A stretch of 61,246 nt of DNA, counting the filler. It is 7 parts of 7 records of this genome, joined end to end, with 100 filler letters (N's around TTAATTAATTAA, not from the genome) between each part and the next. Parts side by side here need not be neighbours in the genome. Positions count along the whole stretch, not along the records: positions 53,924 to 61,246 come from SRR31147125_7130; 6 more parts are not named here. One strand, written 5' to 3'. The position numbers and the translations under genes were made by a program. The notes under the pieces are model-generated. The model did not search any database. It saw nothing but the letters and a program-made list of their open reading frames with translations, and was not told the DNA's origin. Of this stretch, positions 50,385 to 59,629 are shown piece after piece. Each line of letters starts with the position of its first letter. The stretch's first letter is position 1.

Positions 50385-53300
50385 TTACCATTTACACACC
50401 ACCTTTAACAGATCGCTTCCATTAATTTTTAATTCCTTCTCTAAGTTCAGTTTTAGAGACTTACCATTTTGGACAAAGTTAGTTGTAATCTTTTTATCGT
50501 TTATGGTTATAAATACTTCCTCGGCATTAACATCAGCAGGTAATTCCAAAGTAATTTTATTCAAGTTCAATGTCCCCCATTTTAACTCGATTGAACTTTT
50601 TTGTTGATTACCGGTACGTTCCTGCAAATAACTCCCCCATCCTTCGGCACCACTGAAAAAGCATTTAAAATGTTCTGGAGTGATTCGGGGAGAAAAACCA
50701 ATTTTGCCGGCAGGACCATCATAAATATATCCGCTTATGTTTAGAAGCATTCCCCACGCTGCCATCGAACGGGTGTAATGGTCTCCCCCTTCAATTTCAT
50801 TCCACGGATTATGACGCGTTCCATCATAGCGGCCATGTATTCCATAGGCAATGGATAAAGCTTTATCGAGCAATCCCTCATACATCATATGCGAGGCTAC
50901 CTGGTATTCATATCCAGTCCACGGATCGTCATTCTGACTTAAACGTTTCTTGGGAATGCCATGAGGGTAGGTTAACCCCACCATTCCAGCTTCTTCCTTT
51001 TCTGCCAGAAAAATAAAGCGGCGTTTCATCACCTCGTATATTGTTTCCATACGTGGTGTCCAGTTGTATTTATAAACACTGGTGAGTGCTGTATCTACCA
51101 CTTCTTTTGGTAAAATATAACCTAATCCCAATTGGTGTGCCCAGTTCTGCCCAAATACCTGATCGGCCAAACAACCATCTTCCATCGAAACAGGTAAATA
51201 TCGTTTACCTGTTTCTTTTTCCATTACATCTTCGCCAGGATTGGTATAGGCATGAGTGAAATACTCACCGTTCCAAATATTATTGAGCATCCATTTTTGA
51301 CCAGAGAAGTATAGCTTATGACATTCTTCAGCAAAGGCTTCATCTCCTTGAATTATGGCCATCTTTTCTCCTGCTCTAAGAGCTGCACAGTAGAGAGTTC
51401 CGGTATAGGAGTTCGCACCAAAAGTAATATTATCAGTCAAGTGCTGAATGCCTTCAAGTACACCATTCAACTCTCCATATCTCTCATCTCGTACCATTAA
51501 ATATTGTAAGGCTAATTTCACCTTCGGATAAATGGTGTTTAAATAATCATAATTGGTAGCCATTAAGTGCTCCCGATACGCTTTCAGGACATAACCAGAC
51601 TGCGCATCAGGGATATACCCCCAAACCTCGAAAGACTCATTCCCTCCATCTTTAAAACCTCTGAAATTAATACGACCATCTTCATTTAATGAAACATCTT
51701 CATTAAAATCTTGCATTAATCGCACCGAGCGTTCCAATTCAGGAAATAAGTGAGAAGGTGTTTGCGTATAATTCCACACATGACCACATGTACCGTGACA
51801 AAAACCCACTCCTTCCCAGGAGTACATTCGTCCGTTACGCCACCATTCCACAGCGGCCGATGCCATATTCGCTGAAGAAGATGCAATACGTTGTGTAAGC
51901 CAGTAAGGCAAACTAGTTTTGAGTACATTGCGTCTCGATAAGTGTGCGTTTTTTCAGATAAATAGGTAAAGTTCTCCGACACATAATCAACTACATCAGT
52001 AGACGAATCAAACCAATTATCGTACATCCGCCCAACATCTCCGGGGCATCCGGGTGCATTATTTTGCAAATTAGGAAAATACCATGTAATTAAGAAATTT
52101 ACCTTTCGGCTTTCGTTAGCTTTTAAGGTAAATGAGCTGCCTGCCGCCCCACAAATACTATCTGTAATAAAAGCCGTTTCGGAGGCGACGGCCTTTTGTT
52201 TCCCATGCAACAATTTTATCAATTCGGCTCTATTACCATAATTTGCCGTTGCTGTTCCATCACCATCCAAAACTGCAATGGTCATATCGCCAAAACTCTT
52301 GTGGTTACTTGGAAACATTTTTCCTTGCTCCATTGTAAAGTTTGAAAAGCGAAAATAATCCACAGCAATACCTGCTGAAGCACTTTCGTCAACCACTTCA
52401 ATAGTAGCCTCCTTACCCATGTAATCAGACACATCCCACGATACCAAACGCATTTGCCAATTGTTGCTTCCGGTTGCGGAAAAAATTACCTTTCCATCAA
52501 TAACTAAACGAACGCCAAGTTCTCCATCATTATTCCCAGCGGGACGATTAACTCCAGCAATTAAGAATGACAAATATTTATCTTTAATGCTAATTTCTCG
52601 AGAAACCTTGCCCACTTTATCCCGACCATTAAGTAGTGAAAAAAGCACATGTTGGCCTTGATTTCCTTTAAAATTGTACATAAAATCACGACTTCCCAAA
52701 CTTCCAATATCGGATAAAGAAGCCGCTTTTTGACCAAAGGCCTTTCCTTCAATACGCCAGACCGAAAGGTCGCCTTGCTCCACCGATGTGCCGTCTGCTC
52801 TGGCGATTATACTTTCAAAATCATCAATTATCTCGTAATGATTATTTTCGGAAGCCATTCCATCCTTACTTTCCAGTTTCAATTGAGTAGCTACCCAATT
52901 TTTTGACTTTACTACTTCGTTTTTCCTTAGTGCGTAAACCGAACTATCGGCTTTAGGTATTGCCGCATTTTGCAACCAGCCACCAAGCGAAACTTCCACC
53001 TTTTTGTCTGAAACATTTTTTACTTCAAAACTCATTATGGTGGCAGGCAAGGCAGAATTTTTGGTATCTAAAGGAATAAACGGCGAATAAACTTCGGTGC
53101 TTACTTTCAAGGGGAAAGTTTCTTTGGCTCCTTCATAGTTAATGGTGGCAATCGGATATTCCCCAATAAACGCAATGTCATTAAACCCATCCTGACTAAG
53201 CGGAAGTGTTACTGCTTCTTTTCCTTTTACTTTTGCCGAAATGACAAACCCTTGATCTATTTCTGAAGCAGGACGATAAGTTAAATAGTTGGTAAACGGT

Positions 53301-53608
53301 ATTTTTTTATAGAAAGTAGTTTCATACCAATCACTAAAAATCCACCAGCGCGCTAAGGTTCCATCGCCTCTAACATACAACTGACCTGCTCCAACTCCTC
53401 CACATGGCATTCCGATTGTATAAAGTTCATCTCCACGATAAACCTTTCTTTCTCCTCTGGCATATAATCTTTCTTTCCATTCTTCAGAAAGATTTTTAAG
53501 AGCAGGAACATAGTGTTCATTTCTATCCACATTGGCTTCCTGTGCTGTAACATTCAAAAAGAAAATTACAGTACAAAGACTAAGCAAAAGTTTTCTTACC
53601 ATATCCAT
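50385..53608 (-). CDS. GH116 (GBA2-like) glycosidase with inserted beta-sandwich (frameshift at ~51918)
   Basis: IGMPCGGVGAG, SPFIP...ALP, WEG...C.GTCGHVWNY, CLADQVFGQ, NPWNEIE.GDHY.R. Confidence 0.85.
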
Positions 53609-53611
53609 TAT

Positions 53612-53821
53612 TTATTTTAAACCCGAAAGTTTAAAAGTCCATGCAAACGAACAAGGAGATTCAGATGGAGTAATTGTAGGAACGTCAATCACAACATCAT
53701 TACCTTGTTTTTTCCATTTTAAAGGTTGTTTGCAACCAAGCATTTCAACTTTGGCGTTTGCTTTTAATTCAACATCTTTTACAAGCAATTTTTCTTTTGG
53801 GTAAACCGGGCAAATACAATA
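53612..53821 (-). CDS. C-terminal domain of a GH29 alpha-L-fucosidase (5'-truncated; absent from ORF track)
   Basis: YCICPVYP...VEMLGCKQPLKW...IDVP...PCSFAWTFKL. Confidence 0.7.
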   Translation of the reverse strand, partial: YCICPVYPKEKLLVKDVELKANAKVEMLGCKQPLKWKKQGNDVVIDVPTITPSESPCSFAWTFKLSGLK

Positions 53822-53823
53822 TA

Positions 53824-53923
53824 NNNNNNNNNNNNNNNNNNNNNNNNNNNNNNNNNNNNNNNNNNNNTTAATTAATTAANNNNNNNNNNNNNNNNNNNNN
53901 NNNNNNNNNNNNNNNNNNNNNNN
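53824..53923. other. Artificial contig spacer
   Basis: N44-TTAATTAATTAA-N44. Confidence 0.98.
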
Positions 53924-53965
53924 ATCACCGTTTTCCAAAATTAGCTTGGCTTTTACTGATTTCAT
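53924..53965 (-). CDS. carA: First 14 codons of a probable carbamoyl-phosphate synthase small subunit
   Basis: AGGAGG RBS then MKSVKAKLILENGD, typical of the CarA N-terminus; only 14 residues visible. Confidence 0.6.
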
Positions 53966-54183
53966 TCCAATCCTCCTGAATTCTTTTCAGTTTCAATTGT
54001 GCTTTAAAATTGAAACGTTTTGAAAATAATTGTTATATATTTAAACTTTTTTATTGATTAAAGTTTATTAGTTTGCTTGAAAAAATTAACTAATAAATCT
54101 AAATCCCCTCTTCATTAAATAATCAAAGAAGTGCTGATGATTTAATTCGAGCTGATAAGATTTATGGGATTAATTTTTTCAAT

Positions 54184-54229
54184 AAAAAAGGAATAACAAA
54201 CTACCCTAACAAAGGTAGCTTATTATTCC
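54184..54229 (-). terminator. Intrinsic terminator/attenuator overlapping the leader ORF stop
   Basis: GGAATAATAAGCTACC...GGTAGTTTGTTATTCC + T6. Confidence 0.8.
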
Positions 54230-54437
54230 ATATATTATTAATCTTAAAATTGTTAATTACAAAAATACAAAATACAAAAATCAAAAATGCAATGTTAAAA
54301 GTAAAGGCGGCCGGCAGGTTAACAATGTAGGCCGGTAGAAAAAAGATTAAATGTATTGAAAATAAAAAGGTGAAGTTTAAAAAGATATCTGTTTCGAAAT
54401 TTAAGTTTTCCTTGATTTTAGTTAAGTTTAACAGCAT
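54201..54437 (-). CDS. U-rich putative leader peptide (or small membrane protein)
   Basis: AAGGAGGT RBS; 78 aa with 14 Phe and no Arg; between a consensus promoter and the terminator. Confidence 0.6.
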   Translation of the reverse strand: MLLNLTKIKENLNFETDIFLNFTFLFSIHLIFFLPAYIVNLPAAFTFNIAFLIFVFCIFVINNFKINNIWNNKLPLLG

Positions 54438-54478
54438 CTTTACCTCCTTTTTAAATAAATTTTGCCTAAACTTTTAGT

Positions 54479-54507
54479 ATTATACCCTAAAACGACGTGC
54501 TTGTCAA
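54479..54507 (-). promoter_or_regulatory. Consensus sigma70 promoter
   Basis: TTGACA-17 nt-TATAAT. Confidence 0.85.
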
Positions 54508-54572
54508 ATAGATTTTTAAATAGTTTATATATTGAAATTAATCTTAGAAAATCCTTTCATACTGTAATAATG

Positions 54573-54656
54573 AATCGTTATTTTTATTTATGCGGAAAGA
54601 TGTTTATTCGGTTATTTATACTGAAAAACATTTGTTCGGTTATTTATACGGAAAAT
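54573..54656. repeat. Three 28-bp-period direct repeats upstream of the SatD gene
   Basis: TTCGGTTATTTATAC(T/G)GAAAA at 54607 and 54635; degenerate TATTTATGCGGAAAG at 54585. Confidence 0.75.
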
Positions 54657-54707
54657 TGATGTTTTAAGTGAATTGTGGTATGCTTGTATTAATGAGAGGA
54701 GGTAGAA

Positions 54708-55565
54708 ATGGGCAGCGATAAATTATATATAAAAGAATTGAAAAGAAAATTTGTAAAAAAAACATCACTAACAATAGATGATTTTTATCAATTTTACAAA
54801 GAAATTAATAAAGAGATTAAATTAAATACGGTTCGTTGGTACGTTTATAAGCTAAAAGACCAAAAGATTATAAAAAATATATCTAGAGGTATTTATGTAT
54901 TTGAAAATTCAATAGGAACTGAGGAACTTGAGTATGCTGTAATAACAATAGATATAATAGATTCTTCAAAGCAAGTGAATAAAGAATTTAACAAAATATT
55001 ACTAGAAAAAATTGAAAGATTAAACAAAGAGATAAAAGAAAAGCTAAATTATAAAAGAAAATATTTCATATCACAGGGAGATGAAATACAGATTTTTTGT
55101 TTATATGATGATAGATTAATACGTTTATTATTACTTACTTTAAGTTGTTTAAGTCCTTATAAATGCAGATTTGCGATTAGTATTGGTAATTTCCTTCAAA
55201 ATAGTTTAGCTGAAAACTCCTGGGAAATGAACGGACCTATTTTCTGGAATGGTAGAGATAAATTAAATAATATGAAAAAAAATAAGAAATATAGTGGTGC
55301 AATAGTCTCTGAATATAGTTCGATAGATAATATTTGTAATAAGATGTTAAAAGTTATTCTTAAACTAGTGAATAAAATTTCTCAAAAACAATGGGATGCA
55401 ATTTTTTATCAAATGATAGAAAATGATGTAAATAAGATTATTAAAGAATTAGGAATAAGTCAGACAAGTTATTACGATAGAATAAATAATTCAAATTTGA
55501 GTGAAATAATAGAGGGGCTGGAAGCGATAATTTTGATAATTGATAAAAGGAGGTTACTTGCATAG
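54708..55565 (+). CDS. SatD family protein with extra N-terminal winged-HTH
   Basis: NTVRWYVYKL...ISRGIY wHTH; ITIDIIDSS, QGDEIQ, NGPIFWNGR; C-terminal ELGISQ HTH. Confidence 0.8.
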   Translation: MGSDKLYIKELKRKFVKKTSLTIDDFYQFYKEINKEIKLNTVRWYVYKLKDQKIIKNISRGIYVFENSIGTEELEYAVITIDIIDSSKQVNKEFNKILLEKIERLNKEIKEKLNYKRKYFISQGDEIQIFCLYDDRLIRLLLLTLSCLSPYKCRFAISIGNFLQNSLAENSWEMNGPIFWNGRDKLNNMKKNKKYSGAIVSEYSSIDNICNKMLKVILKLVNKISQKQWDAIFYQMIENDVNKIIKELGISQTSYYDRINNSNLSEIIEGLEAIILIIDKRRLLA

Positions 55566-56383
55566 TGTTTACAATATTGATGCTTATTGCACATACATTT
55601 TCTGATTTCATTTTTCAATCGGAAAATATTGTTAAGGAAAAGGAAAATTTAAAGTTAAAAGGATTCTTTAAACATGGGTTTATTGTTTTCTTCACATCTT
55701 TAATTTTTATAAGCTATACAAATTTTAAAACTATAAAAATAATAATGGTAATATCTTTAATTCATATTGTTATAGATTTTTTTAAAATATTTTCACTTAA
55801 AAAACTTGAGAGCTACGTTGAAGATTCAGTATATAATCTCTGGAAGCTTATATTTTTTATAGTAGATCAAGTTTTGCACATTGGAACAATCCTTTTTATT
55901 GCAAGTGGTGTATCATTAACTAAAAACATCGTTATGGCAGATATTGAAATAATATTAGGAGTGAATAATGTATCAGTTCTTTCAGAGTTAAAGTCATTAT
56001 TTATAATATTGTATGTGACATTTTCAGGAGCATATTTGATCCCATTATTTTTTAATATAATTTATTCCAATATACCAGACTATAATAATAAATTAAATGA
56101 AATACTTAAAAAGGAGATAGAGAATGATAATCACAGCTTTATAAATGAAGTTAAAACAGGTAAATGGATTGGTATATTAGAAAGAATGTTAATGCTAATA
56201 TTTATATTACTTAATCAACTACCTGCATTAGGTGTAATAATTTCAGTTAAATCTCTAGCTAGATTTAAAATGATGGATAGTAAGATTTTTTCAGAATACT
56301 ATTTACTTGGAACTTTGTTAAGTGTGGTTCATACAATTGCAGGGTACTACTTTTTTGCAAAGCTTCTAACTTTAATCAATTAA
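55565..56383 (+). CDS. DUF3307 family multi-pass membrane protein
   Basis: AHTFSDFIFQ, KHG, HIVID, DQVLH, GKWIGILER, KSLARF, EYYLLGTL. Confidence 0.85.
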   Translation: MFTILMLIAHTFSDFIFQSENIVKEKENLKLKGFFKHGFIVFFTSLIFISYTNFKTIKIIMVISLIHIVIDFFKIFSLKKLESYVEDSVYNLWKLIFFIVDQVLHIGTILFIASGVSLTKNIVMADIEIILGVNNVSVLSELKSLFIILYVTFSGAYLIPLFFNIIYSNIPDYNNKLNEILKKEIENDNHSFINEVKTGKWIGILERMLMLIFILLNQLPALGVIISVKSLARFKMMDSKIFSEYYLLGTLLSVVHTIAGYYFFAKLLTLIN

Positions 56384-56409
56384 TAATAATTTATCACAAG
56401 GAGAGTCCT

Positions 56410-56769
56410 ATGATAAGCTGCTATATCAAATATAAACTTAACATGCAACAACTGGATGCTTTTAGGGAATACGCTAAAATCTGGATAAAAATTATAAATG
56501 AACTAGGTGGAACACATCATGGTTATTTTCTGCCAAGTGATGACCCACAAGTAAATGAATATAATAAATTCAGTTTTGGTATGGGTTCAGAAGGAGCCAA
56601 AGACATAGGAGTCGCCGTATTCAGTTTTCCTAGCTGGGAAGTATATGAACAGTATAGACAGGGGGCTAAAAAACACCTTGATTGCGAGAGGTCGAATAAA
56701 CTGGTTGAGGAAACAAAATGTTTCTATTGTTACGAGCGGAACTTTATGAAAGCTATACTATCTGATTAA
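56410..56769 (+). CDS. NIPSNAP family protein
   Basis: FREYAKIW, GGTHHGYFLP, FSFPS..YEQYR, YERNF. Confidence 0.8.
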   Translation: MISCYIKYKLNMQQLDAFREYAKIWIKIINELGGTHHGYFLPSDDPQVNEYNKFSFGMGSEGAKDIGVAVFSFPSWEVYEQYRQGAKKHLDCERSNKLVEETKCFYCYERNFMKAILSD

Positions 56770-56892: not shown

Positions 56893-56898
56893 AGTTTA

Positions 56899-56960
56899 AA
56901 GTGAATATTTGTAAAAATAGAAAGGAATTATAGTTTTATAGTAATTTAACTTTATTTTTT
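56899..56960 (+). repeat. 62-bp direct repeat, copy 1
   Basis: 58/62 identical to 59328-59389. Confidence 0.85.
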
Positions 56961-57242
56961 AAATTTTTCATTAAAAATGACACCTTATGCAAAGGATTAT
57001 ACTTGTATATATATAATATATTGAAAATAAAGAAATTTAAGATTATAATATAAAAGGAGAAGTATGTAGAAAAAGGTGAATAGTTCAATATAAGGGTTAG
57101 TTTGTAAATAGTGTCACATTTATTACTGATTTAATAAACAAAACAGTGAATAAAAAGTGCTCGGAGAGAGGAAAGGGTAGTTGGGAAGAGTGCAAGAATT
57201 TAAACATTGAAGTGATGATAAAGTTGATGGAGGGAGGAAAAG

Positions 57243-59329
57243 ATGAAGATTGGGAAACAGATAGGTTTAGGCTTCTCTGTAACAGTAATCTTATTAGTAA
57301 TTGTTTCGTTATGGGGGATTATAGGTGTCGGAAATATCATTAAAGAATCCAAAAATGTCAACAATGGGAATGAAATCAAAGGAGTAATGCTTCAAAAAGA
57401 GATTGATCATTTGAAGTGGGTCTCAAATGTAAACGCATTATTGACTGATGAGAAAATAACGGAGTTAGATGTTGAAACGAACTATAAAGAGTGTGGGTTG
57501 GGAAAATGGTACTATGGTGAAGGAAGACCGGAAGCAGAAAAATTAATCCCAGCTTTGAAGCCAATTTTTGCGGATATGAAAGAACCACATGAAAAACTTC
57601 ATGAAACAGCAATTAGAATTAATGATGTTTATGAACCAGTTGATTTAACCTTAGCAGAGTTTTTAGCAGAAAAGGAAGTTGATCATTTAAAATGGGCTAA
57701 CACCATATTAACTTTTTTGGTTGAAAAAAAGAAAAACTAGAAATCGAAATGGATGATCATGAGTGCGATTTTGGACAATTTATTTTTGGAGATGCGGGGA
57801 AAAAAATGGCGGAGTCAGACTCTGTTTTAGCTCAACTACTAGAGGAAATAAAGGAGCCACATAAACGACTTCACGATTCAGCAAAAAAAATCCAAACTGT
57901 TTGGAATATTAAAGATCCACAAGCAATGGATGAAGCATATCAAATTTATAAAACTGAGACAAAGCCTACTTTGGAGGAAGTTCGAGACTATATACACAAG
58001 ATGGAAGAAAGGGTAGACAGGAAAATAGAAGGATTAACAAAAGCAAATGAGATATATTCCCATGAAACTTTACCGTATCTTCGTGAAATGGAACATCTGT
58101 TTGAACAAGCTGTAATAACAACAAGTGAAAATATAACAACAGATGAAGAGATGTTAAAGATTGCATCTTCATTAAGAGTTATGATATTAACTTTATCAGT
58201 AATAGCGGTAGTTTTAGCTGTTCTTTTTGCCATAATAATAACAAAAGGAATAACTAAACCAATATTATATTTGGTAAAACATATAGCTAAGATAGGAGAG
58301 TATGATATTTCAGAAGATATCCCAGATATCTACGTCAATAGAAAAGATGAAGTGGGAGTCATGAGTCAGTCACTACAGAATCTTCAAACTAGTTTGAGGA
58401 ACTTAATTGATAAAGTAAAAGATAATTCTAATACTGTAGCGTCATTTTCGGAGGAATTAACCGCTATGTCCGAACAATCTTCATCGGTTTTTCAAGAGAT
58501 GGCAAATAATATTAATGAAATTGCAAAAGGAGCATCAGCTCAAGCTGAAAATGCAAGTGAAGGTGCAGATAATTTAATGAATTTAGGTCAAATTATTGAT
58601 GAAAGTAAAGAAAATATAGCTTCGCTTAATAACAGGTCGATTGAGGTAAATAACTTGGTAAATGAAGGGATAAGAATTGTAAATGAACTAACGGAACATA
58701 CAAAATTGAATAATGCAGTGGCGGAAGAAGCTTCGATGAGCATACAAAAAGCTAATAGAAGTTCAGAGAATATTGAAGAAGCAAGTGCGTTTATAGCCTC
58801 TATATCAGAACAGACGAATTTATTAGCTCTCAATGCCGCAATTGAAGCAGCAAGAGCAGGAGAAGCAGGGAAAGGTTTTGCGGTGGTAGCAGATGAAATA
58901 AGAAAACTAGCTGAACAAACAAGAAAAGCAACTGATGAAATCAATGAACTTATCGATAGTTTAAGAACGGATGTTTCTTTAGTTGTAAATAACATGGAGG
59001 AGTCTCAACAGGTATCGTCTGAGCAATCTAATAAAGTAGTGGAAACAGAAAAAACATTTGGTATCATAACAGAGTCTATAAATCATGTGCAGAACATGAC
59101 AAAGACTCTATCAGATGGCAGTAATAAAATGAATGAGTCAAAAAACTATGTTTCTGGAAAAATAGAATCATTGGCAGCTGTATCTCAGGAGAACGCAGCC
59201 TCTACTCAAGAGGCCTCTGCTGCAATACAACAACAGGCTACTTCTACACAAGAAATTGCATCTGCAAGTACTAAATTATCTAGCTTAGCAGTAGATTTAC
59301 AAAATACTATTGCAATTTTTAAAATTTAA
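57243..59329 (+). CDS. Methyl-accepting chemotaxis protein with two CZB-like sensor domains (frameshift at ~57730)
   Basis: DHLKW...CGLGKW...HEKLH and DHLKW...CDFGQF...[29 protein letters not shown]. Confidence 0.9.
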
Positions 59330-59389
59330 GTGAATATGTGTAAAAATAAAAAAGAATTATAGTTTTATAGCAATTTAACTTTATTTTTT
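59328..59389 (+). repeat. 62-bp direct repeat, copy 2
   Basis: 58/62 identical to 56899-56960. Confidence 0.85.
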
Positions 59390-59527
59390 CAAAATTTTAT
59401 TGTTATGTAAAGCTCTTTCTTTAGTAAAAAATAAACTTTACAAGCAGTCGAAGTATATATTAAATGTTTAGCTTGTATTATTTCTATTAATGTGGTATAT
59501 TGAGTTAAATAATAATAAAATAATATT

Positions 59528-59596
59528 TTACTTGTATAATTCCGAAATACGGTCGGAAGTTTCTACAGCTAACCCTAAATTAGCTACTATGAGTGA
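59528..59596 (+). ncRNA. Purine riboswitch, guanine/hypoxanthine type
   Basis: TATAAT-P2-GTTTCTAC-P3(CCTAAA loop)-ACTATGAG; C at the specificity position. Confidence 0.93.
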
Positions 59597-59629
59597 TTCG
59601 AGATAAAATAAGTGTATTTGGCTATACTT

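Follow-up and report, generated by a model that had tools for sequence, protein, structure and literature searches.

What does a translatable, U-rich leader do in front of a carA-like gene when its stop codon falls inside an intrinsic terminator? The locus that raises this question lies on the minus strand at the left end of a contig (positions 53924-61246; 7,323 nt, GC 0.30) of the window, by which we mean the whole 61,246-nt stretch of DNA analyzed here. The window joins seven contigs by N44-12-N44 linkers and, because it chains separate contigs, genes below 53924 are not neighbours of the leader locus. Judging from sequence comparison, the leader is likely a pyrL-like, UTP-sensing, ribosome-gated attenuator of a pyrimidine-specific carAB operon (probably carA-carB-pyrB-pyrI).

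Leader and carA start in the window

A sequence-only reading of this DNA had described a perfect promoter, a ribosome binding site and a U-rich 78-codon ORF, all of which were recovered (Table 1). The promoter is the only one of 19 promoter-like sites scored in 52500-56500 to exceed 9/12, and its −35, −10 and first transcribed bases can be aligned with those of the carA leaders of three relatives (L088, L090 and L091). The Shine-Dalgarno (SD) sequences of relatives' leaders form anti-SD duplexes with a median of −11.4 kcal/mol. The ORF comprises 42.6% U, 14 Phe codons, no Arg codon and ten U4-U6 runs, with a U fraction of 0.32 in its first third and 0.50 in the distal two thirds. By itself, 43% U is unremarkable because U makes up 37.8% of the contig's minus strand on average, with a 90th percentile of 43.9% for 237-nt segments. 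Of 20,000 shuffles, 1.2% keep the leader frame open as far as the terminator, and each of the two alternative frames holds 7 stops. Searches with the peptide matched neither a Pfam family nor a homologous protein, nor any genome locus.

Table 1. Features of the carA leader locus, in window coordinates.
Feature	Position	Strand	Remark
Sigma70-type promoter, TTGACA-17-TATAAT	54479..54507	-	12/12 match
Predicted start region, T3 run (A/G-TTT)	54466..54473	-	common to L088/L090/L091
Leader Shine-Dalgarno, AAGGAGGT	54442..54449	-	anti-SD duplex −13.2 kcal/mol
Leader ORF, 78 codons (ATG 54437, TAG 54203-54201)	54201..54437	-	
Intrinsic terminator (attenuator), 18-pair stem + U6	54184..54229	-	leader stop inside 3' arm
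Long imperfect hairpin in 224-nt spacer	54077..54182	-	spacer fold z −3.8
SD AGGAGG of carA-like gene	53972..53977	-	
Probable carA (carbamoyl-phosphate synthase small chain), first 14 codons	53924..53965	-	contig end cuts gene

The terminator (hairpin at 54229-54190, −24.4 kcal/mol) has the U6 tail and the TAG within its 3' arm that had been noted before, but the stem, earlier given as 16 bp, holds 18 pairs when G-U is counted. The leader stop begins 26 nt past the start of the 5' arm and 14 nt ahead of the U tract. This terminator is alignable with those of the same three carA leaders, and among seven related terminators compensatory changes occur at 4 of 15 consensus pairs. Directly after it comes a spacer hairpin of ~105 nt with outer arms of 14 bp, which found no meaningful match in the relatives' loci compared and could be an inserted repeat or a processing site.

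The distance of about 220 nt to the next gene was accurate, as the ATG at 53965 lies 224 nt past the U tract. The CarA-like start that the sequence-only reading had recognized also held, within the 14 codons available: its final 10 residues are identical to residues 2-11 of the L088 CarA, which is PF00988-positive. The region upstream can be aligned with the leaders of carA-carB-pyrB-pyrI operons, which is the gene order in L090 and L091, and a search for the exact carA-start pattern matched 0 metagenome contigs. Among sequencing runs, one of DNA contains the stretch and may be its source, and no RNA run was among those listed. Going by these relatives, the window gene, known from 14 codons only, is probably a pyrimidine-type carA.

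Leaders at carA across Fusobacteriota

PF00988 was found in 152 of 190 Fusobacteriota genomes, and we examined 100 hand-picked regions from these carA-positive genomes, with 103 carA copies. A leader was called where a hairpin of −7 kcal/mol or better with a U6 tract lay within 260 nt of the start codon and an SD-led ORF reached within 15 nt of that hairpin. This layout precedes 76 of the 103 copies, namely 17/17 in carAB-pyrB operons and 59/70 of the stand-alone ones, with 0/8 in argC-argJ-carAB-argB-argD clusters and 0/8 internal to pyr operons. The arginine-cluster and pyr-internal copies leave no room for a leader, and therefore indicate no more than that control of the arginine copies lies elsewhere.

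When the reach requirement was dropped and the strongest-SD start alone was taken per locus, the frame still came to within 15 nt of the hairpin, or went past that point, in every one of the 76 carA cases. The leader stop falls −7 to +56 nt relative to the terminator in all 76 (window, +26 nt) and 13 leader ORFs run through the entire terminator, which in relatives mostly lies 18-62 nt from the carA start codon. The median shuffle chance of such an open frame is 0.016 for carA leaders and 0.036 for pyrB leaders, and 4 of 152 alternative frames of carA leaders are free of stops. Lengths range from 31 to 71 codons for carA leaders, and from 25 to 87 codons over all leaders. The median U fraction of carA leaders is 0.46 (first third 0.30, rest 0.56), against 0.28 for carA genes.

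On a quick CarA tree (from which the partial L067 was left out), the leaders sit in one clade, where they account for 76 of 79 rows. Because one clade holds them, the carA leaders trace to one inherited event, and those at pyrB to at most a second; the counts at carA would thus reflect a single inherited element that persisted as its sequence changed. The leader of the L145 carAB-pyrB operon keeps SD, ORF and terminator at a U fraction of 0.21, and is possibly a decayed or differently tuned member. Seven loci (L070-L074, L085 and L086) come from genomes with two carAB copies, with leaders on both, one copy being divergent to genes for an amidohydrolase and a YfcC-like antiporter.

In L087, L088, L090, L091, L058, L061, L062, L145 and the window, the predicted transcript start carries a T3-T4 run. 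Start-run leaders belong to the carAB-pyrB subclade, and L087 has AATTTG as in E. coli pyrBI. The run resembles the reiterative control of pyrBI (PMC6524683) and may be a second, reiterative-transcription layer, in which case the T3 run of the window could be a UTP-dependent site of this kind. A T3 run at the start is present in just 6 of 65 leaders having a good promoter, and is thus not general.

Leaders at pyrB and pyrK, and control genes

pyrB was found in 163 of the 190 genomes, and 70 hand-picked loci of these 163 matches were examined. The leader layout was called at 51, a further five have a terminator with the leader stop 16 nt short, and 14 were uncalled; two of these lie within carAB-pyrB and one adjoins a contig end. 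The strongest-SD start reaches the hairpin (within 15 nt or beyond) in 48 of 56 pyrB cases, and the distal two thirds of pyrB leaders have a median U fraction of 0.51. Leaders thus occur at two separate pyrimidine operons of the same genomes, for example in Cetobacterium sp. SF1 (L094 and L204), and L080 provides a third context, before pyrK. Being found at carA, pyrB and pyrK, the leader therefore tracks pyrimidine operons, not carA as such. The pyrK-like gene of L080 follows carAB and has its own U-rich leader, which has the stretch DVPY..GA.. in common with its group's carA leader and suggests leader duplication.

Applied to 194 other operon-first genes (71 clusters) of the same loci, the same rule returned 12 calls: one at pyrK, seven that are themselves an ordinary upstream gene of 127 aa, and four before fhs (U fraction 0.37; in L051 this site has a purine riboswitch). 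Operon-first pyrF-like genes gave 0/8 calls and pyrK-like genes 1/12. None of 30 clostridial pyrB loci was called, with terminators at 24 and PyrR-type loops in most. Leader U-richness overlaps that of ordinary upstream DNA, since the leader median of 0.46 compares with 0.38 upstream of other genes, where the 90th percentile is 0.47.

What selection keeps

Across 22 close pairs, substitution rates at codon positions 1/2/3 are 0.13/0.10/0.16 in leaders vs. 0.05/0.02/0.26 in carA, and across 15 pyrB pairs 0.16/0.13/0.19 in leaders vs. 0.07/0.03/0.28 in pyrB. In most pairs indels are either absent or add up to a multiple of three, two pyrB pairs being exceptions, and the reading frame of the leader switches among close relatives. 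U is raised at all three codon positions, and U/(U+A) at 4-fold sites is 0.52 and 0.59 in leaders vs. 0.42 and 0.45. Because the peptide is near-flat in its substitutions and terminator pairs compensate, what selection appears to maintain is a strong SD, a frame open as far as the terminator, U content and the terminator itself rather than the peptide. The comparison of relatives that had been proposed thus came out as foreseen, with U-richness and the stop/terminator overlap kept and the peptide sequence barely constrained.

No conserved pause hairpin was found among the leaders (local fold z < −2 in 4/124, median +0.70, window +0.8), nor any excess of antiterminator pairing over shuffles (z < −2 in 7/124). 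Motifs of the form TTNTTT, a NusG-type pause motif (PMC9226507), number 2 in the window vs. 3.2 expected, and exceed expectation in 76 of 124 relatives' leaders (median 3 vs. 2.4), which is unpersuasive.

PyrR and the sister leaders of Clostridia

PyrR scored above the cut-off in 22 of the 190 Fusobacteriota genomes and in 0 of the 71 carA-leader genomes. In the four PyrR-positive genomes whose carA was examined, the gene lies inside a pyrB-pyrC-carAB operon. The main text of the F. nucleatum transcript map mentions neither attenuation nor a leader, and its supplement has carA and pyrB only in an expression table, with pyrB as FN0419, carA as FN0421 and carB as FN0422 (PMC11005410), a numbering that we infer to fit the layout of the PyrR-positive group.

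The CarA of Haloimpatiens sp. FM7330 (L016) branches beside the leader clade, and we therefore compared the 20 best-matching clostridial carA loci (L254-L273, with Haloimpatiens sp. FM7330 as L016/L254). In 20/20 of them a PyrR-type loop, matched by a pattern that we take to represent such loops, is joined directly to the SD of an 18-49-codon ORF reaching a terminator. The median U fraction of these leaders is 0.39, and the per-locus chance is 0.02-0.34. pyrR was present in all five such genomes tested (ten and seven genomes were left unscored in the clostridial genome searches). The simplest reading is that PyrR would block leader translation and thereby permit termination, so that the clostridial carA leaders are possibly PyrR-gated leader-translation attenuators. 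Together, loop and leader ORF lend support to gating by ribosomes in this lineage of CarA, and they keep a protein sensor in play. By eye, several clostridial loci also have a downstream segment whose bases complement the 5' end of the loop stem.

Proposed mechanism and rival explanations

Fusobacteria are listed among bacteria with runaway transcription (PMC7858274), that is, transcription uncoupled from translation (PMC13323073, citing Johnson 2020). Called terminators at 62 of 535 ordinary gene ends lie at a median of 13.5 nt past the stop, 44% of them within 12 nt. Such frequent proximity to stops suggests that ribosomes normally fail to block terminators here, which is in line with the runaway class and cuts both ways for the leader model. 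Termination would be the default, and read-through would need a slowed polymerase, which the U-rich leader would supply at low UTP. In the mechanism that we propose, a ribosome would load on the leader once its SD emerges. With ample UTP, RNA polymerase would cross ~210 nt before the ribosome arrives, the hairpin would fold and transcription would end; with low UTP, the ~90 U additions and frequent U runs would slow the polymerase, the lagging ribosome would draw level and cover the 5' arm, and the operon would be read through. Without a pause hairpin, and in a phylum predicted to have runaway transcription, the matching of speeds would fall to the long, diffuse U tract itself, and the peptide would be a by-product whose Phe/Ile/Leu/Asn content follows from U-richness. 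The pyrL-type attenuator that the sequence-only reading had placed before the carA-like gene is thus supported by layout and by pyrimidine context in relatives, but its "ribosome-coupled" is better worded as a ribosome that must catch up.

The ribosome might gate a pyrimidine-responsive terminator while the sensor is an RNA-binding protein, or Rho acting on the pyrimidine-rich leader, and not polymerase speed. The fusion of PyrR-type loop and leader SD in all 20 sister-clade clostridial loci speaks for a protein, and the Rho variant draws on the presence of Rho in 4/4 Fusobacteriota genomes tested and on purine-poor leaders (0.46; window 0.40; carA 0.60), pyrimidine-rich RNA being a Rho target in B. 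subtilis (PMC13323073); by analogy, Rho could add to termination here. Against this stand the absence of PyrR from the 71 carA-leader genomes and of conserved structure for a protein to bind, and the finding of a one-mismatch loop-like match in 8 of 127 leaders, none of those checked being placed as in Clostridia. Rfam gave no riboswitch, T-box or RF00515 at the leaders of 20 loci or at the window leader, although it is insensitive to PyrR loops, having matched just 2 of 20 loci scanned, 19 of them clostridial (both matches at pyrB). For Rho, the intrinsic terminator would be superfluous, and on balance we hold either sensor to be unlikely. It is rather improbable, too, that the element reports translation capacity (Phe/Ile/Leu supply, starvation or a nascent peptide) or sets a fixed read-through fraction instead of reading UTP. 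Phe makes up 17.7% of leader codons vs. 4.1% in carA, codon position 2 is a little less variable than the other two, and a Phe-run uORF attenuator has been proposed before Acholeplasma aroF (PMC8632094); but the leaders have no control-codon cluster at a fixed place and no antiterminator, and the genes downstream, at two or three loci, are pyrimidine and not amino-acid genes.

A separate gene for a small membrane protein, ending in a terminator of its own and followed by a carA promoter inside the 224-nt spacer, would suit the length and structure of that spacer and a 19-residue stretch of the window peptide with a mean hydropathy of 2.67. Such a gene is very improbable given that a stretch above 1.8 occurs in only 32 of 124 distinct relative peptides, that neither sequence nor length (25-87 codons) is conserved and no homologue was found, that in relatives the short distance from terminator to start leaves little room for a promoter, and that no minus-strand promoter scoring 9/12 or better was found in the spacer; the peptide as a conserved membrane protein, which the sequence-only reading had named as evidence against its own proposal, therefore did not materialize. 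Arginine-responsive control of carAB could be argued from genomes with a single carAB, whose enzyme would serve both pathways, and from the fungal CPA1 leader, where arginine sensing by a nascent peptide needs no Arg codons. That reading had set arginine aside for want of Arg codons, a reason of little weight given that Arg occurs in 96 of 124 distinct relative peptides, but its conclusion is borne out by context: leaders stand at pyrimidine operons, including the same leader before pyrB, and at 0/8 arginine-cluster carAB copies, and with a leader peptide that is not conserved as well, we regard this explanation as hardly credible.

Relation to known attenuators

The pyrL/pyrBI attenuator of E. 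coli has a discrete pause site with a hairpin, and a UTP-dependent slowing step in pyrBI was reportedly set out by Turnbough and Switzer in 2008. As in pyrBI, a leader frame, here predicted to be translated, covers an intrinsic terminator and would control pyrimidine synthesis without an antiterminator. In E. coli, tight coupling across pyrL stops the terminator from forming (PMC5021804), and the pyrBI terminator lies inside a 135-bp leader gene; stop codons a few nt from a terminator suppress it (PMC4824070, which also cites pausing). Unlike in pyrBI, the leaders described here span 25-87 codons (78 in the window), show diffuse U-richness with no conserved pause hairpin, and are present at carAB as well as pyrB, in a phylum assigned to the runaway and not the coupled class. 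Because the pause-hairpin feature is absent, they are not strict members of the pyrL/pyrBI class, and we would not expect them to be homologous to pyrL.

The Pseudomonas carA leader also holds a terminator, with P32 in P. syringae and a leader peptide in P. aeruginosa, and pyrimidine control there is "possibly through an attenuation mechanism" (PMC4997734), but it is shorter, belongs to Gammaproteobacteria and adds ArgR control. The PyrR attenuators of B. subtilis, Clostridia and PyrR-positive Fusobacteriota serve the same regulon through premature intrinsic termination, but need PyrR and a binding loop with alternative hairpins, both absent here. Leaders such as trpL, pheL, hisL and the Acholeplasma aroF uORF likewise place a translated frame before a terminator, but in amino-acid attenuators a stalled ribosome favours an antiterminator, the opposite logic, and codons match the pathway, neither of which applies here. 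The structured carA motif of Polynucleobacter (PMC8632094) is different in kind. The main text of PMC2965389 does not mention Fusobacteria, and a search of the open-access literature turned up no description of the element in Fusobacteriota.

It is tempting to speculate further, as something possible rather than probable, that, where polymerase normally outruns the ribosome, a long unstructured U-rich leader serves as a kinetic race track that reads UTP with neither pause hairpin nor protein, across the whole pyrimidine regulon of PyrR-less Fusobacteriota, and shares its origin with a clostridial carA leader in which PyrR gates leader translation, a so far undescribed cross between the two textbook systems. 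If true, the way in which much of the phylum controls pyrimidine synthesis without PyrR would be identified, and many unannotated "hypothetical" ORFs of 25-87 codons would be explained as leaders. The leader would also be a natural, mutable test of whether a ribosome can catch a runaway polymerase to control termination, and the clostridial combination of PyrR loop and leader ORF would mark a route between two known strategies.

Host and rest of the contig

The contig also encodes a permease, for which identity is 88% to that of an uncultured Ilyobacter MAG and 68-78% to those of Cetobacterium and Fusobacterium, with 12 of 15 loci from Fusobacteriota; the genome with the closest permease (G001) gave no carA or pyrB match. 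Together with the leader alignments, these matches point away from the low-GC Gram-positive host that the sequence-only reading had assumed, and the host is probably a member of the Fusobacteriota. Rfam found a single element in the window, a purine riboswitch away from the leader, and no RF00515; with a terminator, this riboswitch precedes a xanthine/uracil permease gene (59512-59609, plus strand). SatD-family and DUF3307 genes (54708-56383, plus strand) are divergent from the leader promoter. A chemoreceptor gene (57243-59329, plus strand) is split within its CZB domain, beside A runs, into ORFs of 165 and 526 aa, by frameshift, slippage or assembly error. Near-identical stretches of ~75 nt (~56895-56975 and 59325-59402, plus strand, by eye) flank this gene and suggest an insertion or duplication.
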